The notes: a model not told the origin generated them from the letters alone. Numbered from the stretch's first letter, positions 11,567-41,435 are shown. The stretch: DNA of 64,000 nucleotides from an uncultured Bacilli bacterium (GCA_934155005.1 CAKPGR010000003.1:13011-77010), one strand, 5' to 3'. A program made the numbers and translations.

Positions 11567-11595
11567 AAAATATTATATAGAAGAGGAGAAATTTT

Positions 11596-14715: not shown

Positions 14716-14738
14716 AAATGGAAATTATTTTTCCATTT
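14716..14738. terminator. Bidirectional terminator between the convergent toxin/immunity operon and the VanY-like genes
   Basis: aaatggaaa/tttccattt stem flanked by an A-run upstream and a T-run downstream. Confidence 0.6.
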
Positions 14739-15399: not shown

Positions 15400-15438
15400 A
15401 ATCTCACCACTATATTATATGAAAAAATGTTAAGTAGT

Positions 15439-16512: not shown

Positions 16513-16636
16513 ATTAAATTATAACACGTATAATAAAAAATGTTAAATAAATATATTAAACAAAATAAAAAAATTTAGAAATTATGTCTATAATATTAAT
16601 AAAATCTAGAAGGTCACAAAAAAAGTTAATTATTTA

Positions 16637-17581
16637 TTAACTTTTTTCAATATAATATGCATAGTATTCATCGTAAGTGATATTTTCTTTATGTATTTTC
16701 AAAGCCATATCTTTTCCAACATATCTATAATGCCAAGGTTCATAATCATATCCAGTTATGTCCTCTTTTCCTTTTGGATATCTTAAAATAAAACCGTATT
16801 TATAAGCATTTTCTTTTAACCATTTACTTTCATTTGAATCATCAAAATTATCCATTGTACTATTATAAGTTACAATATCAAGCGCTAAACCTGTTTGATG
16901 TTCAGAATATCCAGGACGAGCTGCATATAAATCAGCCCATTTTTCACCATTTTTAGTAGCATATCTGTTCCATATACTATCTTGGTCTTCATAAGACCTA
17001 TAAGAAGCATTAACAATTAAATTAAGACCTTTTAATTTAGCTGCTTTATACATTTCTATAAAAGCATCAACAACTTCTTTATTCGCTTTATTATCAGCAA
17101 AAGCATAAGTTGTACCAATATTTATTATGTCAGTAGCTTCATAAGATTTATCTAAATGATAAAATTTATTTATTAACATTAAGTTTCCTAAACTTGTATC
17201 AGTTTCTTTAATAGCGTCTTCATCATACCATTCATAGTCTGCTCCTACATTAACAATACTTACAACATGTGACATTTTATCATTTTTATTTTCTTTATAA
17301 TAAGCCAAATATCTATCTAAATTTTTATATAAAAAGTATTTTTGTTTTACAAAAGAAACTAGTGATTTACTATATTTTTTTGTTAAAACGTCATCAATTT
17401 CTTTATCTTTAAGTTTAAGTATTATTTTTATTTCACTATCATCATAACCAATTTTACCTAATTTATATTCATAACTATTTATATATTTTATGTATTTAAA
17501 ACATCCAATACTTGCTATTATGATAAAAATAATAAGTCCAATTAAAATATAAAATGATTTTTTTAATCTTCTTTTTTTCAT
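16637..17581 (-). CDS. Peptidase M15B/VanY family (paralog 3) with extra N-terminal domain
   Basis: N-terminal TM; ASYRSYEDQ, YSEHQTGLALDI, EPWHYRYVG. Confidence 0.8.
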   Translation of the reverse strand: MKKRRLKKSFYILIGLIIFIIIASIGCFKYIKYINSYEYKLGKIGYDDSEIKIILKLKDKEIDDVLTKKYSKSLVSFVKQKYFLYKNLDRYLAYYKENKNDKMSHVVSIVNVGADYEWYDEDAIKETDTSLGNLMLINKFYHLDKSYEATDIINIGTTYAFADNKANKEVVDAFIEMYKAAKLKGLNLIVNASYRSYEDQDSIWNRYATKNGEKWADLYAARPGYSEHQTGLALDIVTYNSTMDNFDDSNESKWLKENAYKYGFILRYPKGKEDITGYDYEPWHYRYVGKDMALKIHKENITYDEYYAYYIEKS

Positions 17582-26446: not shown

Positions 26447-26470
26447 ACTAGGCTTTAATACCTAGTTTTT
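26447..26470 (+). terminator. Terminator after tex (short stem actagg/cctagt plus T-run)
   Basis: Inverted repeat followed by TTTTT. Confidence 0.45.
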
Positions 26471-26520: not shown

Positions 26521-26549
26521 TTGATAATTATAAATTTTGGTGTTATACT
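26521..26549 (+). promoter_or_regulatory. Candidate promoter of the T4SS-like island (TTGATA - 17 nt - TGTTATACT extended -10)
   Basis: -35 at 26521-26526, TG-extended -10 at 26541-26549, then GGTGGTG RBS. Confidence 0.45.
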
Positions 26550-26585: not shown

Positions 26586-26759
26586 ATGAAAGAAGCTACA
26601 GGAGAAGCAAACATGACAGTAGTAACAATTATCTTAATTGCGGCAATTGTTGCAATCGCTACACCATTAATAACTAATATGATGAATAGCACAAAACAAA
26701 AAGCGGAATGCATGAGTAATGGTGGTGTTTGGGAAAATAACACATGTAAAAATTCATAA
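26586..26759 (+). CDS. 57-aa pilin-like protein (Flp-like size): MKEATG N-terminus, hydrophobic helix, C-terminal Cys-x12-Cys
   Basis: Not in the ORF track (below the cut-off). ATG 26586 with RBS AAAGGTGGTG. Sequence MKEATGEANMTVVTIILIAAIVAIATPLITNMMNSTKQKAECMSNGGVWENNTCKNS. Confidence 0.5.
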   Translation: MKEATGEANMTVVTIILIAAIVAIATPLITNMMNSTKQKAECMSNGGVWENNTCKNS

Positions 26760-26774
26760 AATGAGGTATAAAAT

Positions 26775-27200
26775 ATGAAAGAAGCGATAGGTAGTATTCC
26801 ATTATACAATTTTATAATTATATTTATAGTCATTACCTTTGGCTTTTTATCTGCTACACTTATGTACTACAAAGCTTTCAAGTTAAATAGTAAAATAGCT
26901 TATTCCTTAGAAAAATATGAAGGGTATAATGATTTATCTTCTAAGGAAATTAATAAAAATTTGGGAACATTAGGATATCGCGTTGGTAGTACTAATGATT
27001 GTCCTGTTAAACAAGGAAATAGAATAGGTACATCAGGAATTAATTATCCTATTTGTATTTATGAAATAACTAGAAAAGATAGTGCATATTTTAATTATGG
27101 GATAATTACATATATCTATTTAGATATTCCTCTTATAGGAGGTACCTTTAAAATCCCAGTATATACTGAATCTGAAAAGATTTTTAAATTTTCAAGTTAG
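26775..27200 (+). CDS. 141-aa pseudopilin-like protein (M-K-E-A-I-G N-terminus, TM helix, extracellular domain with Cys pair); paralog of the next gene
   Basis: MKEAIGSIPLYNFIIIFIVITFGF...; conserved LGTLGYRVGS...C-x20-C...YGIITYIYLDIPLIGG block shared with the 27213 gene. Confidence 0.55.
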   Translation: MKEAIGSIPLYNFIIIFIVITFGFLSATLMYYKAFKLNSKIAYSLEKYEGYNDLSSKEINKNLGTLGYRVGSTNDCPVKQGNRIGTSGINYPICIYEITRKDSAYFNYGIITYIYLDIPLIGGTFKIPVYTESEKIFKFSS

Positions 27201-27212
27201 AGTGGTGAATTT

Positions 27213-27671
27213 ATGAGAGAAGCAATAGGAACAACATATGTACTAAATTTTATTATTGTATTTTTTGTAATATTCATTGCTTTTTTTGTTGGTAGCATGG
27301 TATATACAAAAGCTTTTAAAGTAAAAAATAAAATAATAGATATAATTGAATATTATGATGGTGAGGTAGTAGATGGATCTAATAGTTTAAAATCAGGACC
27401 ACTTACTGATATTAATAATAAATTAGGATCAATAGGATATAGAATAGCTAATAACAATCAAAATAATTGTGATAATAATAGATTTACGGATAAAGGTGGT
27501 CAAATAGTTAATAAAGGTAATTCTAATTATAGATATTGTATATATAAATTTAAAGAAAATAGAGGAACATATTATGGAGTTGTAACATATATGTATTTTG
27601 AAGTGCCAATTATAGGTGCTAAATTAGAACTTCCAATATATGGTGAAACGAGAACATTTATTAAATTATAA
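27213..27671 (+). CDS. 152-aa pseudopilin-like protein (M-R-E-A-I-G N-terminus), paralog of the 26775 gene
   Basis: MREAIGTTYVLNFIIVFFVIFIAFF...LGSIGYRIAN...C...C...YGVVTYMYFEVPIIGA. Confidence 0.55.
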   Translation: MREAIGTTYVLNFIIVFFVIFIAFFVGSMVYTKAFKVKNKIIDIIEYYDGEVVDGSNSLKSGPLTDINNKLGSIGYRIANNNQNNCDNNRFTDKGGQIVNKGNSNYRYCIYKFKENRGTYYGVVTYMYFEVPIIGAKLELPIYGETRTFIKL

Positions 27672-27684
27672 AAGGGGTGATTAG

Positions 27685-28692
27685 ATGAACGTAATTATTT
27701 CTAATAGATATCAATCTGTTTTAGAACAACTAGACATTGATGTTATAAAAACATTGAATGGTGAATTTGATGTAGATGACATAATAAATCAATTTCAAAA
27801 TTTTTTCTTTCAAAGAATGATTTTAGATATAACAGCTATTAAAGGATATAAAGATATTAAAACACTACAAAAGTTGTCTATATCATTAGATATGGATAAA
27901 GTAATATTACTTTTAGATGATTCAGTTGATGATGGGTCAGGTGACTTTTTATCAAAATTAATATCAATGGGTATATACAACTTCACTAAAAATGTTGAAG
28001 GAATAATGTATTTATATAATAACCCTAATTCATATCGTGATGTAGCGCATATTCAACAACTTGATCAAACAAGTGGTGGACAAGTTGTTGTAGAACACTA
28101 TGAAAATGCAGCTATTCAAAAAGGTGTTAGAGTTATAGGTGTTAAAAACGTTACTAAACAAAGTGGTGCTACAACACTCATTTATATGATGAAAAAACAA
28201 TTAGAAAAACATTATAGTGTTGTTGCTATTGAAGTAGATAAAAATGATTTTAAATTTTTTAATGACAAAAATATGTATTCAACAACAAGTGTTGAAATAG
28301 GAAATTTAGTAGCTAAATATAATGATCAAGATGTGATATTAGTTGATGTAAATGATAGTCAATCAGCTGAAAATTTATGCCATGAAATGCTTTATTTAGT
28401 TGAACCATCAATGATTAAATTAAATAAACTTATGCTTACAAATAATAAAGTATTTAAAGATTTAAAGGGCAAAAAAATAATATTAAATCAAAGTATATTA
28501 AGTACTAAGGATGTATTAGAATTTGAATATGAATCCAATTCAAAGGTATTCTTTAATATGCCACCTTTAGATGAAAGAGAAAGAAGTATTCATATTTTAA
28601 ATAAATTTTTATTTATGATGGGATTCTCAAAACAACAAACTACAGAAGAAGAACAAAAAAAGTTTAGTATATTAGGTCTTTTTGGAAAATAG
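27685..28692 (+). CDS. TadZ/CpaE-like architecture: N-terminal pseudo-receiver-like domain plus C-terminal ParA/MinD-like domain with degenerate Walker A
   Basis: RVIGVKNVTKQSGATTLIYMM aligns to the deviant Walker A xIAVxSxKGGVGKTT but has lost the Gly-rich P-loop; DVILVDVND at the Walker-B-like position. Confidence 0.4.
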   Translation: MNVIISNRYQSVLEQLDIDVIKTLNGEFDVDDIINQFQNFFFQRMILDITAIKGYKDIKTLQKLSISLDMDKVILLLDDSVDDGSGDFLSKLISMGIYNFTKNVEGIMYLYNNPNSYRDVAHIQQLDQTSGGQVVVEHYENAAIQKGVRVIGVKNVTKQSGATTLIYMMKKQLEKHYSVVAIEVDKNDFKFFNDKNMYSTTSVEIGNLVAKYNDQDVILVDVNDSQSAENLCHEMLYLVEPSMIKLNKLMLTNNKVFKDLKGKKIILNQSILSTKDVLEFEYESNSKVFFNMPPLDERERSIHILNKFLFMMGFSKQQTTEEEQKKFSILGLFGK

Positions 28693-28721
28693 TTGACAAA
28701 ATAAGGAAAATAAAGTATATT
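28693..28721 (+). promoter_or_regulatory. Internal sigma-A promoter (TTGACA - 17 nt - TATATT) dedicated to the VirB2-like gene
   Basis: Consensus -35 at 28693-28698 and -10 at 28716-28721; RBS AGGAGGT upstream of ATG 28770. Confidence 0.55.
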
Positions 28722-28769
28722 ATTTATAGAAAGCAATAAAATTATTTATTGAAATAGGAGGTTTTGTTT

Positions 28770-29141
28770 ATGTTAAATATATTAACTGATTTAACTTGTG
28801 AAGGATTAACAATCCCAGGATTAATTGTAAACTTAGTTTATTATGCTATTTTAGCTATAAAAATATTTGTACCATTAGTTTTAATTGTTTTTGGTATGAT
28901 GGATTTAGCAAAAGCTGTTATGGCACAAGATGACAAAATAATGAAAGAATCACAAAAAAGATTAATTAGTAGAATTATTTATGCTGTATTAGTTTTCTTA
29001 ATTATTTCATTAGTTCAAATGGTATTTACTTTCTTAGGAAATGCTGATAAAGATAGTGAAACAGGACAAAGTGGTTCTATGAAATGTGTATCATGTTTAA
29101 TTAATGGTAAAACAGGTGCAGCAAATAGCTGTGGTAGATAA
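28770..29141 (+). CDS. Small two-TM membrane protein, candidate T4SS pilin (VirB2/TrbC-like topology) with Cys-containing C-terminal tail
   Basis: Two hydrophobic helices separated by a conserved loop GMMDLAKAVMAQDDKIMKESQKRLISRII; own promoter and own terminator (monocistronic); ATG 28770 (the track ORF starts at an upstream TTG). Confidence 0.45.
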   Translation: MLNILTDLTCEGLTIPGLIVNLVYYAILAIKIFVPLVLIVFGMMDLAKAVMAQDDKIMKESQKRLISRIIYAVLVFLIISLVQMVFTFLGNADKDSETGQSGSMKCVSCLINGKTGAANSCGR

Positions 29142-29168
29142 GACATTAAATTGTCTTATTTTTTTTAT
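29140..29168 (+). terminator. Rho-independent terminator right after the VirB2-like gene
   Basis: aagaca/tgtctt stem, loop ttaaat, followed by ATTTTTTTT. Confidence 0.6.
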
Positions 29169-29230
29169 AAAAAAGCCATTTTAATTGAAAATAAAAGACT
29201 TTATATGTTATAATTGTTGTAGGTGATAAT

Positions 29231-30145
29231 ATGAAAAATATTAAAAAACTATCAAAAATTTTATTTTTATTCATAATATGCTTTGGATTTGGAATTAACG
29301 CAAAGGCTGCAACAAAAGCTTGCTTAATTGATAGTAATGGAAAATTATCTTGGGATGATATAAATGTTTTAAAATCCAATACAGCTGGTTATTTTGGTAC
29401 TGCTAATAAAACAAAAGCTAATTGTAAAGGATATTTAGAATTGACTTGTGTATATAAAAAAGAAGGAAGTAATAACGTAAAATGGACGTTTACTCAAAAT
29501 TCAAAAGGTGTTAAGAAATTAATTAACCAGGATGGAAAAGAAGCAGAAGCTTCTAAAAAAAATCAATTGACTTTTCCAGGTGATGATTGTCGTACGAAAG
29601 TATACTATGTTAAGGAAGACTGTGGAAAAGGAATTTTTAAAGATGGTTCGTCAAAAGGATGGACTTGGTTAGATATTAGAAAATGTGAAAGCAATCAATA
29701 CAACACTTATACTCTTGTAACGGAAGAAAGTAAGAGTGATACTGATGCAACAGTTATTAACAATGGTCAACATAAGGTGGATACTAAAGAGGATATTATT
29801 AATAAAGATAATTCTTCAAATTCAACTCCATCGACTGCTGATCCGATAACTTCTTGTGATTCTTTGCCTAAGACAATGGAATTGTTAAAGAAGATATATA
29901 ATTTTCTAAAATATATGGTCCCAGTTATAATAATAGGACTTGGAATGTTAGATTTTATAAAAGCTATAACAAGTGATGATGAAAAAGTATTTAAAGAAGC
30001 TTGGAATAAATTGATGAAGAGAATAATTGTAGGAGTTATAATTCTTATTTTGCCAGTAATATTAGAATTTTTAATAAATATAAGTGGAGTAATTAATGAA
30101 GAAGGATTAGACAAAAATAATTTATTCTGTATATTTACAAAATAA
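29231..30145 (+). CDS. Secreted/membrane protein: signal peptide, Cys-rich extracellular domain (8 Cys), C-terminal two-helix domain paralogous to the VirB2-like gene
   Basis: Signal peptide MKNIKKLSKILFLFIICFGFGINAKA; C-terminal GMLDFIKAITSDDEKVFKEAWNKLMKRIIVGVIILILPV aligns with GMMDLAKAVMAQDDKIMKESQKRLISRIIYAVLVFLI of the 28770 gene. Confidence 0.55.
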   Translation: MKNIKKLSKILFLFIICFGFGINAKAATKACLIDSNGKLSWDDINVLKSNTAGYFGTANKTKANCKGYLELTCVYKKEGSNNVKWTFTQNSKGVKKLINQDGKEAEASKKNQLTFPGDDCRTKVYYVKEDCGKGIFKDGSSKGWTWLDIRKCESNQYNTYTLVTEESKSDTDATVINNGQHKVDTKEDIINKDNSSNSTPSTADPITSCDSLPKTMELLKKIYNFLKYMVPVIIIGLGMLDFIKAITSDDEKVFKEAWNKLMKRIIVGVIILILPVILEFLINISGVINEEGLDKNNLFCIFTK

Positions 30146-30224
30146 AAGCAATTAATATTTTATATTGCTTTTTTTTATGTTATAATATAAGGGTAATATT
30201 GTAATTAAAAATGGAGGTAATAAT

Positions 30225-32300
30225 ATGAATGCATCTTTCTTTATGGACGGGGTCAGAAATTTATTTGGTTTAATCGATTCTGGAATATATAATTTAATAT
30301 CAATAGTTTACGAATTAATCATTAAATTATCTAATATAACTTTTTTCTCAGAAGCTAATATAAGAGAATTTAGGGATAGAATTTATGTATTCTTAGCTGT
30401 TTTTATGTTATTTAAAGTTACAATTTCATTAATTACATATTTAGTTGATCCCGATTCTATGGGGGATAAAACTAATGGAATAGGCAATGTTGCTAAAAAT
30501 GTTGTTATTACCTTATTTTTAATTATTATTGTACCTTTTGGATTTGATTTATTATATGAAGCTCAAAATGCTATTATAAGTGATAATTTAATTCCAAGAG
30601 TTATTCTTGGTACTAAGGGTGATGGAAGTAATGTTAATGAATCTTATACAATGGATCCTAATGCTTGTAAAGATGGTGATACATTCGTTACAACAACCAT
30701 TAATAGTGATGGCGATTTAATGGCTTATTTGGCTTTTAGACCATTTTATCAAACATATAAAGATGCTGATATTTCAAGCATTAAAAATGATTATTGTTCT
30801 GCTAATAGTGTTTCAAACTTATTAACTTCGGATATTTATAATGCTGAATCAGGAACTCATAATAGTGGTCAATATTTAATTAATTATCAAATACTTTTAT
30901 CAACAGCATGTGGTATTTTAGTCTTTTTATTACTTTTGAACTTTGCATTTGATATAGCTGCAAGGACAATCAAATTAGGATTCTTAGAGATTATTGCTCC
31001 TATTCCAATTTTGTCTTATATAGATCCTAAATCAGCAAAAGATGGACCATTTAAAAAATGGTTATCAGAAGTAGGAAAAACATGGGCTAGTTTATTTATT
31101 CGTTTAGCCATTGTTTATTTTGCAATATATGCAATAAAATTAATTCCATCCGCACTTGAAGAAGCCAAAGATGAAAATGGTATATGGGTTTCATTATTCT
31201 TACTTATCGGTATATTAATATTTGCTAAAAATGCTATACCACTTATTGAAAACTTATTTGGAATTAAATTCGATCATACAGTTCAATTAAATCCATTTAA
31301 GAAAATAAGTGAACAAGCATTAGGAGGAACAGTAGCCGCTGGACTTGGAGCAGCAGCACTTGGAAGTGGTGCTAGTGGTATTTCACAAGCTGCATCAAAT
31401 GGGTATAATTTTGCAAGAAATAAGCAAAATTTAAAGAAAGCTATAGATTTAGAAAAAGACGAAGGAAAAAAAGCAAAATTGCAACGACAATATGATTCAA
31501 TGAATGCTAGAAAATTTGTTGGAACAACATTTGGTGGACTTGCTGGTGGAGCTTTAAATGGTGCTAAGTCTGGTTATGCAACTGGAGCCAAAGGAAGTGG
31601 AAATGTATTTAAAAATGTTAAAGATGATTTAAAGAAGGGAAATACAAGTAGAAATAATAGACAAAATATTAGTGATTACAATAGAGAAGCAAGATGGCAA
31701 TTTGATAAAACAAGTAAAGAATTGAATGAGGAAAGAGAAGCTATTTTAAATGATAGTAGTTTAACATCTGAGCAAAGAAAAGAAAAATTAAATAATATAG
31801 CTGAAAAAATTATTAAAAATAAAAATAATTATGATAATGCACGTTATGGTTGGGTTGAAAGAAATATTACAGAAAATCTTGACAAAAATTCAGGAGTTAA
31901 AAATGATTTTGGTGGTTATGGATATTACAACAAAAAGATTGAAAAATTAAATAAGGATATTGAAAATAATGATCAAAGAGAAGCAGCATTTAGGACATCT
32001 TTATCACAATTCTGTGTTTCAAATTCAATTGATCAACTTGCAATTGAAGAATTACATAAGAAATTGGTTGATGCTAGAACCGAAAGTAACGCTACTATAA
32101 AAGCAAATATGATAGCACAAGCTTATACAGAAATAAGTACTAAGCATAATATTGATAGCGATAAGCTTAAGAATTCCTATGCTAGTGTTGAAACAACATT
32201 AAATAATATTGATACAGTTGATGAACAAACTAAACAATTTAAAGCAGAGAGAGCTAATTATAAAGAAATGATGGCAGCTCGTGAAGATGTAAAAAAATAA
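30225..32300 (+). CDS. VirB6-like polytopic membrane protein (TcpH/ConG/Tn916 Orf15-like) with long C-terminal soluble coiled region
   Basis: 691 aa; at least 6 TM helices in the first 350 aa, then a charged helical C-terminal half; position upstream of the VirB3-VirB4 pair. Confidence 0.55.
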   Translation: MNASFFMDGVRNLFGLIDSGIYNLISIVYELIIKLSNITFFSEANIREFRDRIYVFLAVFMLFKVTISLITYLVDPDSMGDKTNGIGNVAKNVVITLFLIIIVPFGFDLLYEAQNAIISDNLIPRVILGTKGDGSNVNESYTMDPNACKDGDTFVTTTINSDGDLMAYLAFRPFYQTYKDADISSIKNDYCSANSVSNLLTSDIYNAESGTHNSGQYLINYQILLSTACGILVFLLLLNFAFDIAARTIKLGFLEIIAPIPILSYIDPKSAKDGPFKKWLSEVGKTWASLFIRLAIVYFAIYAIKLIPSALEEAKDENGIWVSLFLLIGILIFAKNAIPLIENLFGIKFDHTVQLNPFKKISEQALGGTVAAGLGAAALGSGASGISQAASNGYNFARNKQNLKKAIDLEKDEGKKAKLQRQYDSMNARKFVGTTFGGLAGGALNGAKSGYATGAKGSGNVFKNVKDDLKKGNTSRNNRQNISDYNREARWQFDKTSKELNEEREAILNDSSLTSEQRKEKLNNIAEKIIKNKNNYDNARYGWVERNITENLDKNSGVKNDFGGYGYYNKKIEKLNKDIENNDQREAAFRTSLSQFCVSNSIDQLAIEELHKKLVDARTESNATIKANMIAQAYTEISTKHNIDSDKLKNSYASVETTLNNIDTVDEQTKQFKAERANYKEMMAAREDVKK

Positions 32301-32316
32301 AAAGGGGATGAAATAA

Positions 32317-32637
32317 ATGAATAATACATATTTAATACCAGCTAATAGTAAAAAATCATTAATGATATTTGGATTATTTTATCCATTTGATTTAATGCTA
32401 TTTGGTACAGGACTAGGTATAACATTACTTTTACTTATGGTACTTCCACTTGAAAGTTTAACAATGTCTATTATTGCCATAGCTCCTGGGTTAGTTACTG
32501 GATTACTTGTTTTTCCAGTCCCTAACTACCATAATCTATTAACTGTTTTAATGGAAATTTGGATATTTTTTACAACAAGGCAAAGATATGTATGGAAAGG
32601 TTGGTGTGTGAATAATGGCGAAAGCGATAAAAAGTAA
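32317..32637 (+). CDS. VirB3-like small two-TM protein (Tn916 Orf17/ConD/PrgI analogue)
   Basis: 106 aa, two TM helices; immediately upstream of and overlapping the VirB4 N-terminal fragment. Confidence 0.5.
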   Translation: MNNTYLIPANSKKSLMIFGLFYPFDLMLFGTGLGITLLLLMVLPLESLTMSIIAIAPGLVTGLLVFPVPNYHNLLTVLMEIWIFFTTRQRYVWKGWCVNNGESDKK

Positions 32638-33163
32638 ATATACAAATGAAAGTTTTGTACCAGTTAAAAGTATTACGAATGGTATGATAATTTTAGATAA
32701 TAACGAAAAAGTTTGTGGTATTAAAATAATGCCAAGAAATATTTTTATAGCAGATTATGATACACAAAATGCTATAATAGCTAATTTAAAAAATGTTTAT
32801 AATATGATAGATTATGAATTCTGGATTATTGCAGCTGATAGACCAGTTGATATCAATGTTTTCTTATCACAACTTCAACTTTTATATAATTCAGTTAGTG
32901 ATCAAGCTAAAAGAAAACTAATAATGGAAGATATAAATAAAGCTAATTTATTTATGAATAACAATATTGTTGATACTGAATATTTCTTACTATTTAAAGA
33001 AAAAAATCAAGATACAATACAAAAGAGAATTAGACAACTTATTAATGCTTTTGCAAGTGCTGGATTAAATTCTCATCAAGTGTCTAATGAAGATTTAAGA
33101 ATTATATTAGATAACTTCTTAAATGGTGGACAAACTACTACATTTGGGACGGTGATTGGATAA
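32615..33163 (+). CDS. VirB4-family ATPase, N-terminal domain fragment (split gene, part 1)
   Basis: 182 aa; FVPVKSITNGMIILDNNEKVCGIKIMPRNIF resembles the N-terminal domain of Gram-positive VirB4 proteins (Tn916 Orf16/TcpF/PrgJ); stop overlaps the next start as TAATG. Confidence 0.6.
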   Translation: MAKAIKSKYTNESFVPVKSITNGMIILDNNEKVCGIKIMPRNIFIADYDTQNAIIANLKNVYNMIDYEFWIIAADRPVDINVFLSQLQLLYNSVSDQAKRKLIMEDINKANLFMNNNIVDTEYFLLFKEKNQDTIQKRIRQLINAFASAGLNSHQVSNEDLRIILDNFLNGGQTTTFGTVIG

Positions 33164-34947
33164 TGGATATAAAAGCTCAAATAGCGCCTAAGGGACTAGA
33201 ATTTAAACCAAGTAGTTTTATTATTAGTGATAAATATGCAACTATTTTAACAGCTATATCTTATCCAAGATATATAAATCCAGGATATTTATCATCTTTA
33301 ACTAGTATGTCAGGTATCAAAGTTGTTATAAAACATATACCACTTCCATTTAGTTCAATTAGTAAAATGTTAAACAAAGAAATAGCTGACTTAAAGCAAA
33401 GATATCAAGAAGAACATGATAGAACACTTCAAGAAAGAATTAGACAAGATTATGAATCACTTGAACAATTTATTCAACAATTAGCTGCTTCACAATCAAA
33501 AATTTATGACTTTCAAATGCATATCATGATTACGGCTAATAGTGAAGAAGAATTAAATAGTAAAAAATTTCAAGTAAAAAATTATTTAGAAGCGATGGAA
33601 ATTAGAGCTTTACCACTTAGATTTGAACAAGAAAAAGTTTTAAAATCTATATTACCAATATATGAAAAACAAGATATTGAAGATAGAATAGGTACACCAA
33701 TTCCATCACCAACACTAGCAGCAATGTATCCTTTTATATTTGATAGTATCAAAGATCCAGGACTTTCAACTTTACTTGGAGTTGATTTCTCTGGTGGAGT
33801 TATTTTATTTAACCAATTCTTATATCAAATAAAAAAAGAACACAATCGTAATAATGCTAACATGATTATTTTAGGTACATCTGGTAGTGGTAAATCAACA
33901 GCAGCTAAAATATTACTTAGAACACATATTAGAAACAATTGTCAACTAGTTTTAATTGACCCAGAAGGTGAATTAGAAGAAATGACAAAACGTTTTGGTG
34001 GAGATTTTATTGATTTAGGTAAAGGTGGAGAATTCGGAATGATAAATCCACTTGAAGTTGTAATCGATGCTGATGAAGATGAAATAGAAAATGGTTTAGG
34101 TTATACTGTTTTAACTAGAACTCTTCAAAGTGTAAAAGCTTTTATGAAATATTATGATCCATCAATTGAAGAAGATGTACTTAATATGTTTAGTGAAGTT
34201 TTACAAGAAACATATAGAAGATTTGGAATTAGCTTCGAAGCTGATTTTACTAAGTTTACTTCAAGAGATTATCCAACTTTTAAAGATGTTTATGCAACAA
34301 TTCGTGGTCGTCTTACATCAATGACAGAAAAAACACAAGAAAGAGATGTAATGGAAAGACTAGAACTTAAAATAAGACCAATAGTAAAAGAATTAAAATA
34401 TTACTTTGATGGCCATACAACTATAACAAGTTCTAGTGATTTTATAACATTTAATATTAGAGAAATTATGAATGCTGATGAAAATATTCGTAATGCTTTA
34501 TTCTTTAATATATTAAAATATGCATGGGGATTAACTTTAAATAAAAATGTTAATACTATTTTACAAGTAGATGAAGCTCATGTATTATTGTCAGGAAATA
34601 ATACTCTTGGGGCTGACTTTTTAGCGCAAATTCAAAGACGTTCTAGAAAATATAATACTGGAACAATTATTATAACTCAACAACCAAGTGATTTCTGTGA
34701 TCCACATGTTATAACACAAGGTAAAGCTATATTTGATAATGCATCATACTATTTAGTTATGGGTCTTAAAAAACAAGCTGTTGAAGACTTAGCTAAATTA
34801 GTTGATTTAAATGATAATGAAAAAGAGAATATTAAAGGATTTAGTCAAGGAGAAGCATTACTTGTTTGTGGTTCTAGAAGAATGCGTATTAATATTATTG
34901 CTACTGAGCAAGAATTAGATTCATTTGGAAGTGGCGGAGGATTTTAA
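33163..34947 (+). CDS. VirB4-family ATPase, central and C-terminal ATPase part (split gene, part 2)
   Basis: 594 aa; Walker A ILGTSGSGKST (about nt 33880), Walker B ILQVDEAHVLL; about 20 aa sampled across this ORF follow the VirB4 pattern. Confidence 0.8.
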   Translation: MDIKAQIAPKGLEFKPSSFIISDKYATILTAISYPRYINPGYLSSLTSMSGIKVVIKHIPLPFSSISKMLNKEIADLKQRYQEEHDRTLQERIRQDYESLEQFIQQLAASQSKIYDFQMHIMITANSEEELNSKKFQVKNYLEAMEIRALPLRFEQEKVLKSILPIYEKQDIEDRIGTPIPSPTLAAMYPFIFDSIKDPGLSTLLGVDFSGGVILFNQFLYQIKKEHNRNNANMIILGTSGSGKSTAAKILLRTHIRNNCQLVLIDPEGELEEMTKRFGGDFIDLGKGGEFGMINPLEVVIDADEDEIENGLGYTVLTRTLQSVKAFMKYYDPSIEEDVLNMFSEVLQETYRRFGISFEADFTKFTSRDYPTFKDVYATIRGRLTSMTEKTQERDVMERLELKIRPIVKELKYYFDGHTTITSSSDFITFNIREIMNADENIRNALFFNILKYAWGLTLNKNVNTILQVDEAHVLLSGNNTLGADFLAQIQRRSRKYNTGTIIITQQPSDFCDPHVITQGKAIFDNASYYLVMGLKKQAVEDLAKLVDLNDNEKENIKGFSQGEALLVCGSRRMRINIIATEQELDSFGSGGGF

Positions 34948-34969
34948 TATAAAGTAAGGTGGTGTTGCT

Positions 34970-36592
34970 ATGAATGAAGATTTAGATGATTTAGAAATAA
35001 TTGATTTAGAAGAAGAACCTGAAAAAGATAATATTGTCATAGATGAAGCAACATTACCTAAAAAGGAAGAATCTAAGGAGCAACCAAAAGAAAAACCAAA
35101 AAAAGAAGAATATCATAATTTTAATTTACCTAAAATAAATAGAGGTAAAAATGATAATTCTTTAAATCAAAAAAAAGATAATTTAGATAACGGAAATAAT
35201 AATTTAAATAAAGAAAATAGTAATTTAAATAATAGAAAAAATCCATTAGGTAATAATTTTTTAAATAAAAATAATAATACTGAAAAAAATACCATAAATA
35301 AATTAAATAATATTAGAAATACAAATAGAGTTATACCGCCAATTAATAGTCAAACTTTAAGTAATCAAAGTACTGAAAATAACGATTCTAAAGAAGAAGT
35401 TAAAGAAAATATAGACAAAAAAATTGGTGGAGCGGCTTTAACAGCTGCTACTGGTGGCGCTGTAAGGGGAAAGCAAGCGGAAAAACTATCAGGATTTTTT
35501 AAAGAAGCTATTAAAAAAAATTTTAAATTAAAAATTATGCTTATAGCTGCTATTTCTGTTATTGTATTTATATTATTAATTATACTTTCATTTGGAGCAA
35601 GCAGTGATAGTGGTTTAGGTAAGGATACTAATAGTTATATTACTGGGCAAATGACTGATGATGAATTATATGATGAATTAAGTTATTATGGTTACTGTAA
35701 AGATAAAAGTTCATGTAAGAAAAAAGGTGTTTATAAAGTATTTACAAAATTAAAAAATCTATCAGAAGAATACAAAAAGCCTTGTAGTAATGTTTCAAAT
35801 AATAAACCATGTGGTGTTAATTTAAATACAGGATTAATTATTGAAACAATTAATTATTATCGTAATTCATCTGATCAATTTGATTTAGTAGAATTAACAG
35901 ATGAAGAAGAACAAGATGAAAATGTTTTGAAAAAAATGATAGGAAATGTAAAAACATATTTTAAGAGAAAAAGTGAATTAAATAGTTTACTTGATGATAT
36001 TGATAATCTTGCTCTAGCACAAGCTGAATATGTAGAAAATAAATGCGGTAATAAATACTATCAAATAAGTTTTAATAAATATATTTCATATTTAAAATAT
36101 GGAAATACGAGTACACATCCAAATTATAGTGGTAATTCAGTTTCTGTTGATACTTGTTCTGGACCTAAAAATGATTATATACAAACATCATATAATCAAG
36201 ATGGAAATACTAATATAACATCAATAACAGGGTCAGGCGTTGGTACCGAAATTGTTAATTATGCCTTACAATTTGTTGGGGGTAAATATGTATGGGGTGG
36301 TACAGATTTAAATAAAGGTGTTGACTGTTCAGGATTTACTATGAAAGTTATGGAACATTTTGGAATAAAATTACCTCATAGTGCTAAAGCTCAGCTTACA
36401 GCAGGTGGTACAAATGTTGGAACAGATATTACCTTAGCTTTGCCAGGGGACTTGATTATTTATAATGGACATGTTGCTATATATATGGGTAATAATCAAA
36501 TAGTCCATGCGGCAGATGAAAAACATGGTATTATTGTTTCTAAGAATGCTTCATATTCTAAAATAAAAGGAATTGTTAGATATTGGAACTAG
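34970..36592 (+). CDS. T4SS-associated cell-wall hydrolase: disordered Asn/Lys-rich cytoplasmic N-terminus, one TM, C-terminal NlpC/P60 domain
   Basis: C-terminal DCSGFTMKVMEHFG...GDLIIYNGHVAIYMG...HAAD gives the Cys-His-His triad of NlpC/P60; TM IMLIAAISVIVFILLIILSF. Confidence 0.8.
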   Translation: MNEDLDDLEIIDLEEEPEKDNIVIDEATLPKKEESKEQPKEKPKKEEYHNFNLPKINRGKNDNSLNQKKDNLDNGNNNLNKENSNLNNRKNPLGNNFLNKNNNTEKNTINKLNNIRNTNRVIPPINSQTLSNQSTENNDSKEEVKENIDKKIGGAALTAATGGAVRGKQAEKLSGFFKEAIKKNFKLKIMLIAAISVIVFILLIILSFGASSDSGLGKDTNSYITGQMTDDELYDELSYYGYCKDKSSCKKKGVYKVFTKLKNLSEEYKKPCSNVSNNKPCGVNLNTGLIIETINYYRNSSDQFDLVELTDEEEQDENVLKKMIGNVKTYFKRKSELNSLLDDIDNLALAQAEYVENKCGNKYYQISFNKYISYLKYGNTSTHPNYSGNSVSVDTCSGPKNDYIQTSYNQDGNTNITSITGSGVGTEIVNYALQFVGGKYVWGGTDLNKGVDCSGFTMKVMEHFGIKLPHSAKAQLTAGGTNVGTDITLALPGDLIIYNGHVAIYMGNNQIVHAADEKHGIIVSKNASYSKIKGIVRYWN

Positions 36593-36600
36593 GTGATTAA

Positions 36601-37224
36601 ATGAATGAAACATTAAAAAGAAAAATTCTTATTATTTCTTTTTTACTACTTACTGTTATATTCCTTTTCTTTATAATTTTAAACAATAAAAAAAATAAAA
36701 TGAATACATTTGATGTTAATAGTGAAAATGTTGATTATATTGATAATTTTCTAATTAATTTAGAAAGTAATTTAAAAGAAAAAAATATTGATTTTGTAAG
36801 TGAAAAAGCAAAAAATAAAGATATATATTCAATTCTTGTTGTAATGGAAGATAGTGATGAAGATATAAAATCAAATAACTATTTATCATATAACATAAAT
36901 ATAAAAACAAAAAAAGTTATGAATAATGAAGAGGTTGCTAATTCATTTGGGTATTCATTAGATGATATTTTTAAAGCAATAAATAAAAGACTAGAAGATT
37001 TATATCAAGATGAGATAAAAGAAGGATTTGTAGAAAAAAATGAATGTGACTTTGAATGTTATAAATCTTATTATAGAGGAATTGAAAATATAGAAGATAT
37101 TTATAGTTTATACGTTAAAGATAATAAACTATATATTTATGTTTCAATTAAGGTTATATCAGCAGCATCTGATGAAGATTATTTCAAAAAGTTAAATTAT
37201 AATCCATATAAAATAGAGCTATAA
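36601..37224 (+). CDS. Bitopic membrane protein (N-terminal TM plus about 170-aa soluble domain); possible VirB8-like component
   Basis: Topology and position (after the hydrolase, as Tn916 Orf13/TcpC/ConB) only; no motif recognised. Confidence 0.3.
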   Translation: MNETLKRKILIISFLLLTVIFLFFIILNNKKNKMNTFDVNSENVDYIDNFLINLESNLKEKNIDFVSEKAKNKDIYSILVVMEDSDEDIKSNNYLSYNINIKTKKVMNNEEVANSFGYSLDDIFKAINKRLEDLYQDEIKEGFVEKNECDFECYKSYYRGIENIEDIYSLYVKDNKLYIYVSIKVISAASDEDYFKKLNYNPYKIEL

Positions 37225-37237
37225 TCGAGGTGGTAGT

Positions 37238-38755
37238 ATGAAAAGATTTTATAAAATAATAGATAAAATAAATATATCATTATTTGTTTTTCTTTTCATA
37301 TTCTCTTTTTCATATTTTCTACCTAAAAATATAGTCATTTCAAAAAAAATATATTTAGATAAAAATTCATTCATAAGCCAAATGTCAGAAGCTGCCGTAC
37401 AAGATATGAAAGAAACAGGTGTATTTGCTAGTGTTACAATTGGACAAGCAGCAGTTGAGTCTGGTTGGGGAAAAGATGAAATTTCAACAACTTATAATAA
37501 CTATTTCGGTATGAAAGCTGGAGGAGATATATATGTAAATGGTATTAAAACAAAATGTGACTCTAGTAATAGAAAAGTTATTGGTAAATCTAATAATCAA
37601 AATTCCTTTTGGGGTGGATATGCTGTTTGTTTATCTGCATCAGAAGGTGGGGGATCATGGTTTAGAGTTTATGATAGTGTTTTAAATTCAATTAAAGATC
37701 ATTCTAGAAATTTTTGGTGTAATACTAGTGGTAGATATATAAAAAATGGTGTTTTTGCATCACCTAATCCAGAAGTTCAACTTTATACTATTGCTAAGTC
37801 AGGGTATGCTGTTGATGGTAGTGGTAATATTACAACTATCGGTGGTCTTAGATATGACCAACATATATATCAAAAAATAATAATTCCAAATAATTTAACT
37901 AAATATGATAATGTGTATCAAAGTGGAGTTAAACCGGCATATGCAGAGACTTGTACAGATGCCGTTTATACAGGATCAACTCCTACTATTGATACATCAT
38001 CTTCATCTAATTTAAATGGAGTTAGTGATTTTAAAACAACATATAGTGGAGATGTAAAAGAAGGATATATTTATAAAACACAAAAAAATAATGCCTTAAA
38101 AGTAACAGAAAAAACAGTTACTGAAAAAATAGATGAAAATATAAATTCCATTATAAAAAGTATATTTACAACGACAGGTGAATATTCTGATGGAAAAATA
38201 GGCGCTAGTGCATATACGGCAAATGTTACATATGTAAATGGTAGTTTTAAAAATAAAGTTGTTTATTATAATCAAAATGATTATAAAAGTTATCCATATG
38301 GTAGCTATGGTACTATAGCATCTCATGGTTGTGGTACAACATCAATGGCAATTGTTATTTCTAGTTTTTTAGGAAGAGAAGTAAGTCCTGTTGAAACTAC
38401 TAATTGGGCATGTTCAAATGGTTATTGTACTTCTAGTGGATCTTCTCACTCTGTAATTCCAGGACTTGCAGCACAATATGGATTAAATAGTACTAATGAA
38501 ATATCTTCAAGTTCTAATTTACAACCAGTTGTCGATGCCCTAGCAAGTGGTAATTCGTTAGTTGTTGTTTTAGCTAAGTCAGGAGAATTTACAAATAGTG
38601 GTCACTTCCTTGTTTTGACAGGAGTTGATGCAAGTGGTAATATTTCAGTAGCAGATCCTGCAAGTAGAAAGAAAACAGAAAAAACATATACATTAGATTT
38701 CTTAATAAATCCAACACAAGGACATATCGTTAAATTCTGGATTATAAGTGGGTGA
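37238..38755 (+). CDS. Secreted bifunctional peptidoglycan hydrolase: N-terminal GH73 glucosaminidase-like domain plus C-terminal papain-like (CHAP/C39-like) domain
   Basis: Signal/TM N-terminus; GVFASVTIGQAAVESGWGKDE...YNNYFGMKAGG (GH73 signature); C-terminal ASHGCGTTSMAIV...SGHFLVLTGVD (Cys-His dyad). Confidence 0.7.
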   Translation: MKRFYKIIDKINISLFVFLFIFSFSYFLPKNIVISKKIYLDKNSFISQMSEAAVQDMKETGVFASVTIGQAAVESGWGKDEISTTYNNYFGMKAGGDIYVNGIKTKCDSSNRKVIGKSNNQNSFWGGYAVCLSASEGGGSWFRVYDSVLNSIKDHSRNFWCNTSGRYIKNGVFASPNPEVQLYTIAKSGYAVDGSGNITTIGGLRYDQHIYQKIIIPNNLTKYDNVYQSGVKPAYAETCTDAVYTGSTPTIDTSSSSNLNGVSDFKTTYSGDVKEGYIYKTQKNNALKVTEKTVTEKIDENINSIIKSIFTTTGEYSDGKIGASAYTANVTYVNGSFKNKVVYYNQNDYKSYPYGSYGTIASHGCGTTSMAIVISSFLGREVSPVETTNWACSNGYCTSSGSSHSVIPGLAAQYGLNSTNEISSSSNLQPVVDALASGNSLVVVLAKSGEFTNSGHFLVLTGVDASGNISVADPASRKKTEKTYTLDFLINPTQGHIVKFWIISG

Positions 38756-38759
38756 TTAG

Positions 38760-39446
38760 ATGAAAAAAATAAAATTATTAATGTGTAGTATTTTTATCAT
38801 AATGTTAACAGGCTGTAATACTGATTATACTATTAATGTAAATAATGATTTATCAGTAGATGAAAAAGCTTCCATTGAAGAAACATATTACTATTTTGAA
38901 GAAAATTATACATATTATCATAGCAGTGAAGTTTTAGATCTTTTATGGGATCAATTTAGTGATAAATACAAAGATAATAGTTATACATACACACATAATA
39001 GTAGTGAAACAGGAATATATGTAAAAACTAGTTATAAAAATATAGACGAATTTGTTAATAAAAATAAAATATATAATCAGTTTTTTGAAAAAATTGATTA
39101 TACAAAAAAACAAAATCAAATAACACTAGAAACAAAAGGTGAGTTTTATCCATATAATGAACAAGATCCAGAAAAGTTTGCTATCGAATCTACTAAAATT
39201 AATATAGTAGTACCATTTAAAGTTATATCTAATAACGCTGATCAAGTAAGTGGTAATAAATATACATGGTATATTAATAAAGATACAAAAGATAAAAAAA
39301 TTAAAATTACATTTGATACTTCTAATAGTCAAATAAAAAAACAATCAAAAAATTATTATTTGATTATTATTGGAATAGGAATATTTATTGGTATTATTAT
39401 TTTATATATTAGTTATAAAATAAAAAGAGCTGATAATGAAATATAG
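38760..39446 (+). CDS. Lipoprotein with C-terminal TM anchor
   Basis: Lipobox IIMLTGC at the N-terminus; C-terminal hydrophobic helix LIIIGIGIFIGIIILYI. Confidence 0.55.
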   Translation: MKKIKLLMCSIFIIMLTGCNTDYTINVNNDLSVDEKASIEETYYYFEENYTYYHSSEVLDLLWDQFSDKYKDNSYTYTHNSSETGIYVKTSYKNIDEFVNKNKIYNQFFEKIDYTKKQNQITLETKGEFYPYNEQDPEKFAIESTKINIVVPFKVISNNADQVSGNKYTWYINKDTKDKKIKITFDTSNSQIKKQSKNYYLIIIGIGIFIGIIILYISYKIKRADNEI

Positions 39447-39455
39447 GAGGTTTTT

Positions 39456-41435
39456 ATGAAATTAAAATTAAAAGCAGAAGCAAGAGATTGGATTATTTTC
39501 GTTATATATGCCGTTTTTCTATTTTTCTTGATTTGTGTTGCTGTTGTAAATTTAGGAACGTTTGCAACTGAATCAAGATTTTCAGGATTTAATCCTTTCT
39601 TAGCATTTCAAAGAGATTATATTGGACCAACAATGGTATTTTACCTTGGTGCTTTAATAGCTTCATTTGTTAGTGTTCAAAATCATTTTTTTGAGAGAGA
39701 AAAAGGAATTGGATTTAGTGTAGGAGCAAAAAAGGAAAAAGGATACTCAAGATGGGCTACTGATAAAGAATTTAAAAAGGATCTAGAAAAAATATTACCC
39801 GATCAAGAAAAATGTGAAAAAGGTGGTATTCCTTTAATTAATAGTGGAAAAGAAATTTGGGTTGATCCAAGTGGATATCATAATATGATTATAGGATCAA
39901 CAGGATCAGGTAAATCACAAGCTATATCAAAGCCATTTATTAGAGTTATGGCCAAGGCAGGAGAATCAATGATTGTAACCGATCCAAAAGGAGAACTTTA
40001 CGAAGATACTTCACTTGAATTAAAAGCAAGAGGATATAACATAATTGTTTTAAACTTCCGTGATCCTCAAAAAGGTAATTGTTGGAATCCATTTTCCTTA
40101 CCATATAAATTATACAAAGAAGGAAACATTGATAAGGCAACTGAATTACTAGAAGATTTAGCAAAAAATATTCTATATGATGAATCAAGCAAAGGTCAAG
40201 ACCCATTTTGGGAAAATACATCAGCTGATTATTTTACAGGATTATCACTTGCTTTATTTGATGATGCTAAGGAAGATGAAATAAATATTAATAGTATAAA
40301 TTTAATGAGTACAGTTGGTGAAGATAAAATAGGTGGTACAACTTATATAAAAGAATATTTTAGTGATAAAGATCAATCTAGCGGTGCTTATGTAAACGTT
40401 TCAAGTACTTTGATGGCTCCTAGTGATACAAAAGGAAGTATTTTATCAGTATTTAAACAAAAAATAAAATTATTCTCATCACGTGAAAATTTGTCTGAAA
40501 TGTTATCACATAGTGATTTTGATATTGAAGATATTGGACGTGAAAAAACAGCTGTTTTTATTGTTATTCAAGATGAAAAAAAGACATATCATCCATTAGT
40601 TACAATTTTCTTAAAACAATGTTATGAAACATTAGTTAGAGTAGCTCAAGAAAATGGCAGTAAACTTAAATATAGAACTAATTTCTTACTAGATGAATTT
40701 GCTAATATGCCTCCTTTAACAGATGTTGATGCAATGGTTTCAGCAGCGCGTTCTAGAAATATTAAATTATCATTTATCATACAAAACTTCTCACAATTGA
40801 ATGATGTTTATGGTAAAGAAAAGGCAGAAACAATAAGAGGTAACTGTGGTAATACAATTTATATTTTATCAACAGAACTTTCAGCATTAGAAGAAATTAG
40901 TAAGATGTGTGGAGATGTAAAATCTAAAAAAGATGATAAGACTGATTCGAGGCCATTAGTTACTGTTTCTGATCTTCAAAAACTAAAAGAAGAAGAAGCT
41001 ATAATTTTAAGATCAAGAATGAATCCTTATAAGACAAAATTAAAATTTGATTATAAAATTGATTGGGGTAAAAAATACGAAAAAGCTAAATACCCAAATA
41101 GAGAAAAGATTAAAGTAACTACTTTTGATTTAAAAGGATATGTTAATAAAAAAAGAGATAAGAAAATAAATGACATGTTAGGTGGAAATTCTTCTAAGAT
41201 TCCTTCTATGCCAAATATATTCGGACCTAAACCAGGTGCACCTGATTTAGATAGCATAGTAAAAAGGATAGATGCTAAAATAGCTGAAATGGAAGCTGAA
41301 GAAAGAAAAGAACAAGAAAAAAGACAAGCTAAAAAACAAGTCACACCTGAACAAAAAGAACAACCTAAAAAAATTAATCTTGAAGAAGTTACTGATGATC
41401 AATTCTTTGATGATTTCTTTAATGATGAAGAATAG
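39456..41435 (+). CDS. Type IV coupling protein, VirD4/TraG/TcpA-like ATPase with N-terminal TM helices and acidic/aromatic C-terminal tail
   Basis: Walker A MIIGSTGSGKSQ (about nt 39900), Walker B FLLDEFANMPP; two N-terminal TM helices; C-terminal EEVTDDQFFDDFFNDEE. Confidence 0.8.
   Translation: MKLKLKAEARDWIIFVIYAVFLFFLICVAVVNLGTFATESRFSGFNPFLAFQRDYIGPTMVFYLGALIASFVSVQNHFFEREKGIGFSVGAKKEKGYSRWATDKEFKKDLEKILPDQEKCEKGGIPLINSGKEIWVDPSGYHNMIIGSTGSGKSQAISKPFIRVMAKAGESMIVTDPKGELYEDTSLELKARGYNIIVLNFRDPQKGNCWNPFSLPYKLYKEGNIDKATELLEDLAKNILYDESSKGQDPFWENTSADYFTGLSLALFDDAKEDEININSINLMSTVGEDKIGGTTYIKEYFSDKDQSSGAYVNVSSTLMAPSDTKGSILSVFKQKIKLFSSRENLSEMLSHSDFDIEDIGREKTAVFIVIQDEKKTYHPLVTIFLKQCYETLVRVAQENGSKLKYRTNFLLDEFANMPPLTDVDAMVSAARSRNIKLSFIIQNFSQLNDVYGKEKAETIRGNCGNTIYILSTELSALEEISKMCGDVKSKKDDKTDSRPLVTVSDLQKLKEEEAIILRSRMNPYKTKLKFDYKIDWGKKYEKAKYPNREKIKVTTFDLKGYVNKKRDKKINDMLGGNSSKIPSMPNIFGPKPGAPDLDSIVKRIDAKIAEMEAEERKEQEKRQAKKQVTPEQKEQPKKINLEEVTDDQFFDDFFNDEE

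Follow-up and report, generated by a model that had tools for sequence, protein, structure and literature searches.

Four consecutive open reading frames (ORF1 to ORF4) in the chromosome of an uncultured Bacilli bacterium probably form the distal half of a very divergent Tad-like (type IVc-like) pilus operon, orphaned here from the half that encodes the motor. They occupy positions 26586 to 28692 of the 64,000-nucleotide stretch that we analyzed (GCA_934155005.1 CAKPGR010000003.1:13011-77010; about 25% GC), which we call the window and on which all coordinates are counted. We propose that ORF1 would be the major, Flp-sized pilin, that ORF2 and ORF3 would be minor pilins priming or capping the fiber, and that ORF4 would be a TadZ/CpaE-like organizer that has lost ATP hydrolysis and recruits or positions the machine. 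The motor and platform would consist of a CpaF-like ATPase and two polytopic membrane proteins, assisted by a CpaB-like protein and by DUF5411, and the whole operon would be a conserved chromosomal feature of a lineage of uncultured, low-GC gut Bacilli/Mycoplasmatota. The elements of the module are the following:

26586..26759, plus strand: ORF1, 57 amino acids (aa), candidate major pilin, Flp-sized
26775..27200, plus strand: ORF2, 141 aa, candidate minor pilin or pseudopilin, paralogue of ORF3
27213..27671, plus strand: ORF3, 152 aa, candidate minor pilin or pseudopilin
27685..28692, plus strand: ORF4, 335 aa, TadZ/CpaE-like by architecture
28144..28176, plus strand: degenerate P-loop K-N-V-T-K-Q-S-G-A-T-T, residues 154-164 of ORF4, from the sequence

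The intergenic gaps between ORF1 and ORF4 measure 12 to 15 nt, and a Shine-Dalgarno-like sequence precedes each ORF.

The assignment is carried by gene order in relatives. We mapped 17 proteins of the window and 6 proteins of a related locus (L002) onto 84 loci chosen by ORF4, and an independent metagenome scan seeded with the ATPase supplied 80 more loci. Of the 68 ORF4-chosen loci for which 7 kb or more of upstream sequence is available, 60 have the ATPase gene upstream of ORF4 on the same strand, and ORF4 lies downstream of the ATPase gene in 23 of the 24 ATPase-chosen loci with enough downstream sequence. Nearly all of the 60 share a single order on one strand, namely, DUF5411, the CpaB-like gene, the ATPase gene, two membrane genes (about 300 and 262 aa), ORF1, ORF2, ORF3, and ORF4; a few carry an additional YfhO gene ahead of ORF1, alone or together with a second ORF1 copy. 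Three permuted loci (L157, L153, and L158) read DUF5411, ORF2, ORF3, CpaB-like gene, ATPase gene, two membrane genes, and ORF4, with ORF2 and ORF3 placed between DUF5411 and the CpaB-like gene (L157, L153) and ORF4 directly after the tadC-like gene (L157, L158); we therefore conclude that the quartet shuffles within the Tad gene set. Genes of a type IV secretion system (T4SS) follow ORF4 in 63 of 66 ORF4-chosen loci and in 14 of 17 ATPase-chosen loci. Locus L148 carries the Tad block and ORF1 to ORF4 with no T4SS gene after them, and L140, L145-147, and L149 show no T4SS match after ORF4, on shorter downstream sequence. The synteny of block and quartet, together with the T4SS-free loci, therefore indicates that the quartet belongs to a Tad-like gene set of which the T4SS is a frequent but dispensable neighbor.

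These observations bear on two claims of the initial annotation, which was made from the window alone. The functional analogy that it drew with Flp, TadE, TadF, and TadZ gains support, in that the quartet stands directly downstream of the CpaB-like gene, the CpaF-like ATPase gene, and the two polytopic genes in most relatives. Its suggestion that the genes had been grafted onto a T4SS, a hybrid that would explain the absent motor, is not supported: the motor genes are upstream in relatives, L148 has the quartet without a T4SS, and L157 has it interleaved with the Tad block. The module is probably not a new pilus/secretion hybrid.

ORF4 is encoded by at least 581 species genomes (one genome per species was scanned), all of them from uncultured organisms labeled "Bacilli," "Tenericutes," "Mollicutes," or "Mycoplasmatota," including Acholeplasma sp. 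CAG:878 and Candidatus Fimihabitans. We take this lineage to correspond to the GTDB order RF39.

The ATPase of the upstream block (about 360 aa) passes the Pfam cut-off for T2SSE with an E value of 3e-26. Among solved structures, its closest relative is CpaF (E value of 3.5e-17, residues 3-258), followed by an archaeal GspE-type ATPase and FlaI, with the N-domain matched too, whereas two of three VirB11 chains align with nothing beyond the core (residues 136-262). The NCBIfam models rank differently, with VirB11 at 7e-31, TrbB at 5e-27, and the TadA family at 1e-26, all far below the cut-offs (107 bits against 250). The CpaB-like protein (290 aa; about 270-290 aa across loci) is matched by RcpC/CpaB PF16976 and by TIGR03177, each at about 2e-5 and below the curated cut-offs, and the 133-aa protein of the block is DUF5411 (E value of 4e-54). 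The two polytopic proteins (301 and 263 aa) have no detectable paralogy with each other, and we call them TadB/TadC-like by position and multihelix topology only. In the two loci examined (L016:1780-4647; L002:17-796), the region just upstream of DUF5411 encodes a large secreted protein of 955 aa that is rich in Cys and conserved toward its C-terminus; it has no family match and may be a pilus-associated adhesin.

The NCBIfam ranking could be taken to mean that the ATPase is of the VirB11/TrbB type and that everything from DUF5411 to VirD4 is one expanded, conjugation-type apparatus with ORF1 to ORF4 as lineage-specific accessories; a VirB11-like size of 360 aa and the colinearity of block and T4SS on one strand in most loci would fit. 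We find this very unlikely, as the TadA-family score is nearly equal to scores that all fall far short of the cut-offs, CpaF, the archaeal GspE-type ATPase, and FlaI are its closest relatives of solved structure, a CpaB/RcpC-like gene stands ahead of the ATPase gene, two polytopic membrane genes follow it in the manner of tadB and tadC, and the block of L148 stands without a T4SS.

ORF1, which the initial annotation had described as missing from the ORF track, proved to be a genuine gene, with 335 homologues at an E value of ≤0.1 and gene calls in other assemblies; the possibility of a spurious small ORF was rejected for the same reasons, its conservation and its annotation elsewhere. The protein begins with a short polar start, MKEATGEAN, continues with a hydrophobic helix of about 22 residues, and ends in a variable tail that holds an invariant Cys pair (C42 and C54 across 27 homologues). 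Its N-terminal 27 residues are almost invariant among the 27 aligned homologues, 26 of which are 65-82% identical to ORF1, and family members range from 54 to 87 aa. In relatives, it combines the small size of Flp (about 50-80 aa), a single N-terminal hydrophobic helix, and a location beside tadA/tadB/tadC; the gene is directly 3' of the tadC-like gene in most of them, though not in the window, and several loci carry two or three copies. The Flp_Fap model (PF04964) detected nothing in ORF1 at an E value of ≤1 and nothing in the 27 homologues at ≤0.1, and matches of two homologues to the archaeal Pilin_N model, at 0.028 or weaker, are not significant.

Two variations in the surroundings of ORF1 were recorded. 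A gene of the YfhO family, glycosyltransferase-like, lies between the tadC-like gene and ORF1 in L002 (5915-8772), where it comes with a second ORF1 copy, and in L018, L027, L037, L039, L093, and L095; in L001, L003, and L004, which have no nearby ATPase block, the pair of YfhO gene and ORF1 copy is directly upstream of ORF1. The YfhO-family protein may be a pilin-modifying enzyme. In L110, a locus with neither ORF2 to ORF4 nor a T4SS, an ORF1-like gene is directly followed by a 926-aa protein (7513-10293) with the canonical prepilin start KMGFTLIELL, and the organism should therefore have a classical prepilin peptidase.

The mutual paralogy of ORF2 and ORF3, as initially proposed, is supported by 35% identity at an E value of 2e-20. 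Their family comprises 1450 clusters (at 50% identity) at an E value of ≤0.001 and is marked by a conserved Y-T-K-A-F-K-V-K-N motif after the helix and by a Cys pair (C86 and C109 of ORF3) that does not vary among 41 homologues. The structural model of ORF3, with a predicted local distance difference test (pLDDT) score of 83.8, shows an N-terminal helix (residues 3-47), a second helix (61-74), and a three-stranded sheet. A Foldseek search of this model against the PDB returned no significant match, and the modeled fold is at most suggestive of a likeness to pilins. The TadE (PF07811) and Tad-like (PF13400) hidden Markov models (HMMs) matched neither ORF2 nor ORF3 nor any of the 41 family members.

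The three small proteins share the features that had first drawn attention to them: N-termini of the form M-[KR]-E-A-[IT]-G (MKEATG in ORF1, MKEAIG in ORF2, and MREAIG in ORF3), one hydrophobic helix after this start, and exactly two Cys residues after the helix. Across about 80 species, the starts read M-K-E-A-[AT]-G-E-A-N for ORF1, M-[RK]-[EQ]-[SAG]-I-G for ORF2, and M-[RK]-E-[AS]-I-[GAS] for ORF3, and DUF5411, the fourth protein with an MKE-type start, has M-K-E-S-F-W. The presumed cleavage-site Gly was thus only partly as conserved as first described, Gly6 being invariant in the 27 aligned ORF1 homologues and near-invariant across loci (71 of 78) but not invariant at position 6 of ORF3 (58 of 83). 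The MKE-type start is absent from the other membrane proteins of the locus (the CpaB-like protein, ORF4, and O5), and its presence in ORF1, ORF2, and ORF3 is not a matter of chance. Comparison by hhalign of the ORF1, ORF2/ORF3, and DUF5411 families aligned only the first 16-17 residues, with low probability. Type IV pilins usually align only over their N-terminal start, and a six-residue start ending in Gly recalls type IVa leaders, which is a lead rather than a test. The M-[KR]-E-[AS]-x-G start and the hydrophobic helix would together form a common recognition and assembly element, comparable to a class III signal. The initial annotation had allowed for an unrelated conjugation family, for example, a TcpD/TcpE-like or VirB3-like one, and ORF1 to ORF3 gave no conjugation match in Pfam or NCBIfam.

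ORF4 is the most conserved of the four families and a good marker candidate. It has more than 6800 homologues, and the 120 listed are 69-99% identical, none of them with an annotation or a Pfam domain. Residues 152-167 read GVKNVTKQSGATTLIY, with GVKNVTKQSGATT at the place of the P-loop of ParA-type proteins. The P-loop Lys has given way to Ala162 and there is no Gly-Gly pair, which confirms the degenerate Walker A motif noted at the outset. The degeneracy is itself conserved: I151, G152, K154, N155, T157, K158, Q159, G161, A162, T163, and T164 are invariant in 32 homologues, among which only V156 and S160 vary within the motif at 154-164. In the AlphaFold2 model, whose pLDDT is 59 overall and about 80 for residues 150-320, the motif sits between a strand (150-155) and a helix (161-173), and the C-terminal domain is, as modeled, a ParA/MinD fold without a functional Walker A motif. 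The N-terminal domain is the most conserved part of the protein; its pLDDT is below 50 for residues 70-146, so that the model, in which an alternating strand/helix pattern is no more than suggested, does not confirm the pseudo-receiver domain of the initial annotation. The ParA, CbiA, AAA_31, and CpaE models matched neither ORF4 nor its aligned homologues, and hhalign of the ORF4 profile against Escherichia coli MinD and CheY gave no signal, with approximate query sequences and an ORF4 alignment of low diversity (Neff 1.6). A standard plasmid-partition ParA, the other identity considered from the start, was rejected on account of the dead P-loop (invariant Ala162 and no Gly-Gly pair) and the lack of an adjacent ParB-like gene.

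The absence of family matches, the lack of a significant Foldseek match, and the dead P-loop of ORF4 would also be compatible with no filament at all, that is, with ordinary bitopic or secreted small proteins that have a common targeting start and a ParA-like positioning or scaffold protein serving, for example, the envelope or division. The genes that come after ORF4 in L148 look, from sequence only, to be of the DivIVA, RodZ, PgsA, and RecA types, and those of the first two types would suit such a role. We nonetheless give this explanation little credence in view of the tight linkage to a T2SSE ATPase gene and a CpaB-like gene in hundreds of species, the pilin-like conservation pattern and multiple copies of ORF1, and the confinement of the common start to the pilin-sized proteins of the locus.

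Several results weigh against a Tad-like pilus. No model for Flp, TadE/TadF, TadZ/CpaE, or T2SSF matches ORF1 to ORF4 or the two membrane proteins, so the family memberships implied by the initial annotation fail at the HMM level (Flp_Fap, TadE, Tad-like, CpaE, and ParA match no member of the four families). Sequence and profile searches against solved structures (all PDB sequences) yielded nothing for ORF4, the ORF2/ORF3 family, or the two platform-like proteins, and the latter have no Pfam, NCBIfam, or PDB-profile match, T2SSF (PF00482) included. The Flp processing motif G/XXXXEY is not present in ORF1 (MKEATG-EANMTV, with T and V at +5 and +6), and Glu at +5 is absent from the MKE-type starts in general. 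A crude regular-expression scan of the multi-transmembrane ORFs of 170 loci and the window found no prepilin peptidase (A24, GxGD-K) motif; matches in VirB6-like ORFs were dismissed as chance. The ATPase also scores comparably well on the VirB11/TrbB models, and ORF4 is located after the pilin genes and not before tadA. The Walker-A-like consensus of TadZ is K/RGGXGXS/T (bioRxiv 10.64898/2026.07.08.737194), and ORF4 fails it; because ORF4 fails even this relaxed consensus, we infer that it would be a nonhydrolyzing scaffold. Lastly, no motor genes were seen for the window's own genome in the 64 kb searched, where tblastn with the Tad ATPase block detected neither a CpaF/TadA-like ATPase gene nor a platform gene, in agreement with the initial annotation.

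The setting of the module in the window has these further features:

26447..26466, plus strand: terminator-like hairpin (stem-loop plus T run) closing the upstream tex gene, the 5' boundary of the module
26521..26549, plus strand: promoter-like site upstream of ORF1, TTGATA-17-TATACT with a TG extension, by consensus match only
28693..28721, plus strand: promoter-like site in the gap between ORF4 and the T4SS, TTGACA-17-TATATT, 11 of 12 matches, by consensus match only
28764..41435, plus strand: T4SS-like cluster, outside the module, from family matches and conserved position

The gene directly upstream of the module was identified by Pfam as tex, and the module and T4SS stand between housekeeping genes (gatA/gatB, serS, fpg, dinB, and tex upstream; a class A penicillin-binding protein gene and argS downstream). 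The arrangement of tex, ORF1 to ORF4, and T4SS recurs in other assemblies of the species (L165-L169); tex is confirmed upstream in two of the five (L165 and L166), and the contigs of the other three end within the upstream gene. ORF4 differs from its counterparts in conspecific strains by 13 synonymous and 0-1 nonsynonymous changes (pN/pS of 0-0.018), and the ratios are 0 for ORF1, 0-0.04 for ORF2, 0.18 for ORF3, and 0.03-0.11 for tex, counts that are small but consistent. ORF1 to ORF4 are under purifying selection and are maintained in the window's species. A rearrangement in this species would have placed tex upstream of the quartet, and the motor genes are therefore presumed to be elsewhere in the genome. 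The loci L001, L004, and L002 encode one and the same ORF4 protein, but of the three only L002 has the ATPase block upstream, and such a break can therefore arise within a species-level group. At the junction in L001, L002, and L004 (around 4970-5810) lies an Rpn/PDDEXK_2 recombination-nuclease-like gene, split into two ORFs in L001, which is a candidate agent of rearrangement.

The neighboring cluster, of Gram-positive type, comprises two VirB2/T4SS_pilin-like genes, a VirB6-like gene, a split VirB4 gene, an NlpC/P60 hydrolase gene, a glucosaminidase gene with a C39-like domain, and VirD4. Its VirB2-like pilin candidates match PF18895 and Mbov_0395, and no relaxase or integrase match was found between 28764 and 41435. 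The cluster is flanked by housekeeping genes and conserved in its synteny across many species, and an origin of the module on an integrative and conjugative element (ICE) was rejected in view of these flanks, the vertical-looking conservation, and the lack of an integrase or relaxase match. VirB4 in the window (32615-34947) is encoded by two ORFs, of 182 and 594 aa, that overlap; every related locus examined shows this split, which is therefore a conserved two-gene VirB4 rather than a frameshift error. Homologues of the VirB2-like genes (28764-29141 and 29231-30145) are amplified, to as many as five or more copies, downstream of ORF4 in L077, L081, L084, L161, and L134. Near-consensus promoter-like sites (11 of 12) precede the first two T4SS-side genes (28693-28721 and 29185-29214) and suggest, as sequence matches, that the T4SS genes could be transcribed independently of ORF1 to ORF4; promoter-like consensus matches arise at chance frequency in the AT-rich DNA of the window.

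Elsewhere in the window, positions 4838-14432 hold a type VII secretion-like cluster, whose products include an FtsK/SpoIIIE protein resembling EssC (6736-11313; 1525 aa), a protein with DUF4176 (11596-11934), and a transglutaminase-like protein of 817 aa. Three tandem paralogues of VanY-type D-Ala-D-Ala carboxypeptidases (224, 357, and 314 aa) follow on the minus strand (14725-17581).

The proximity of the two gene sets raises the question of a true hybrid, in which ORF1 to ORF4 would serve the T4SS, for instance as a surface filament or adhesin that the VirB4/VirD4 machine would assemble or use, with no need for a Tad motor in the window's genome. The gap of 71 nt between ORF4 and the first T4SS-side gene holds no detectable terminator, T4SS genes follow ORF4 on the same strand in most ORF4-chosen and ATPase-chosen loci alike, a Tad ATPase gene is missing within 10 kb upstream in the window and 7 other loci, L001 and L004 lack the ATPase block of L002 in spite of their identical ORF4, and the module is under purifying selection in this species. 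Against this stand the L148-type loci, where the quartet and the Tad block have no T4SS after them, the interleaving of ORF2 and ORF3 with the Tad block (L157, L153), the strong promoter-like site (11 of 12) between ORF4 and the T4SS genes, and the T4SS's own VirB2-like pilin candidates; absence of the ATPase gene within 10 kb, moreover, does not equal absence from the genome. Overall, we consider a true hybrid decidedly improbable. The VirB4/VirB6/VirD4 cluster would instead be a separate machine, usually but not always the next transcription unit after the Tad-like operon, with which cofunction is possible but would not be needed; the pilus could, for instance, establish contact and the T4SS carry out the transfer.

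Among known systems, the closest described case is, as far as its published outline allows, the predicted, uncharacterized type IV pilus-like system of gut Clostridia (Roseburia, Ruminococcus, and Eubacterium) in which DUF5411 occurs with CpaF and PilC/GspF (Miller et al. 2022, PMC9523054). As in the block of our relatives, that outline gives a CpaF-family ATPase, DUF5411, a membrane protein, and Gram-positive gut hosts, along with several small genes that could not be annotated (PMC9523054). The present hosts differ in being uncultured Bacilli/Mycoplasmatota, and both membrane proteins here lack a T2SSF match; the outline of the clostridial system reports no T4SS neighbor (PMC9523054). Next comes the Tad-like cluster of TANB77 (PMC11680825), which is likewise from an uncultured gut Firmicute with a reduced genome and contains CpaB-, TadZ-, CpaE-, TadA-, and TadB/C-like proteins and a run of one-helix proteins of 143-237 aa, called pilin-like from context and topology only. 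TANB77 differs in belonging to the class Clostridia, in having TadZ and CpaE upstream of TadA, in its fused TadB/TadC, and in that no T4SS neighbor is described for it (PMC11680825).

The canonical Tad/Flp loci (flp-tadV-rcpCAB-tadZABCDEFG of Aggregatibacter and cpa of Caulobacter) offer a parallel parts list to the locus of relatives: a small pilin, two paralogues as TadE and TadF, a ParA/MinD-fold organizer without the P-loop Lys as TadZ/CpaE, a CpaF/TadA-like ATPase, two membrane proteins as TadB/TadC, and a CpaB/RcpC-like protein. The differences are that our pilin, minor pilins, TadZ-like protein, and platform proteins have no detectable sequence homology with their Tad/Flp counterparts, that the locus has neither G/XXXXEY nor a prepilin peptidase, that its TadZ-like gene follows the pilin genes, and that its ATPase is short (about 360 aa). 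A secretin and outer-membrane parts are also absent, as expected for a monoderm-type envelope.

Pilus genes next to a conjugation-type machine do have precedents, and the initial view that the arrangement had not been described is correct only in part. Accounts of the IncI/R64 thin pilus, the PAPI-1 type IVb pilus, and pYR4 place type IV pilus genes beside a VirB4/VirD4-type transfer system, and the PAPI-1 pilus is described as recognizing recipient cells to initiate transfer (PMC10286972, PMC5297154, PMC6232867). Those systems are of type IVb, on Gram-negative mobile elements, and have relaxases, whereas the locus studied here sits on the chromosome, is Tad-like and vertically conserved, and has no detectable relaxase; by analogy, they may nevertheless serve as a working model for the usual adjacency of pilus and T4SS. 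What did stand is that a Tad-like set beside a relaxase-less T4SS in Gram-positive-type chromosomes was not found in the literature searched, and searches on RF39 with type IV secretion, pilus, or Tad retrieved nothing describing the locus in this lineage. The Mollicutes ICE families Mbov_0395/0396/0397 match the pilin-like, VirB6-like, and VirB4 genes of the neighboring cluster weakly, all below the cut-offs, and have no counterpart of ORF1 to ORF4, so that the likeness concerns the T4SS neighbor only.

A bolder proposal, which we regard as rather unlikely, is that Tad-like pilus and T4SS are parts of a single conserved apparatus for contact and transfer in this uncultured gut lineage of reduced genomes, with pilins whose new, very short MKE-x-G start needs no classical prepilin peptidase and with a quartet that could function here even without a motor. 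If this were true, the pilus would first capture a partner cell, and transfer of DNA or proteins by the VirB4/VirD4 machine would follow.

On the divergent Tad-like operon that we favor, the "missing" motor would reflect a synteny break in one species rather than a machine of a new kind. The four protein families are new and unannotated; they are missed by current domain libraries, and the loci therefore go unannotated in thousands of metagenome-assembled genomes. The lineage concerned is common in human and animal guts, uncultured, and endowed with small genomes, and the habitual pairing of the operon with a T4SS that has no detectable relaxase is noteworthy in such an important group. A pilus locus present in at least 581 species genomes, usually beside a relaxase-less secretion system, would be a strong candidate for attachment to, or exchange with, hosts or partner bacteria.

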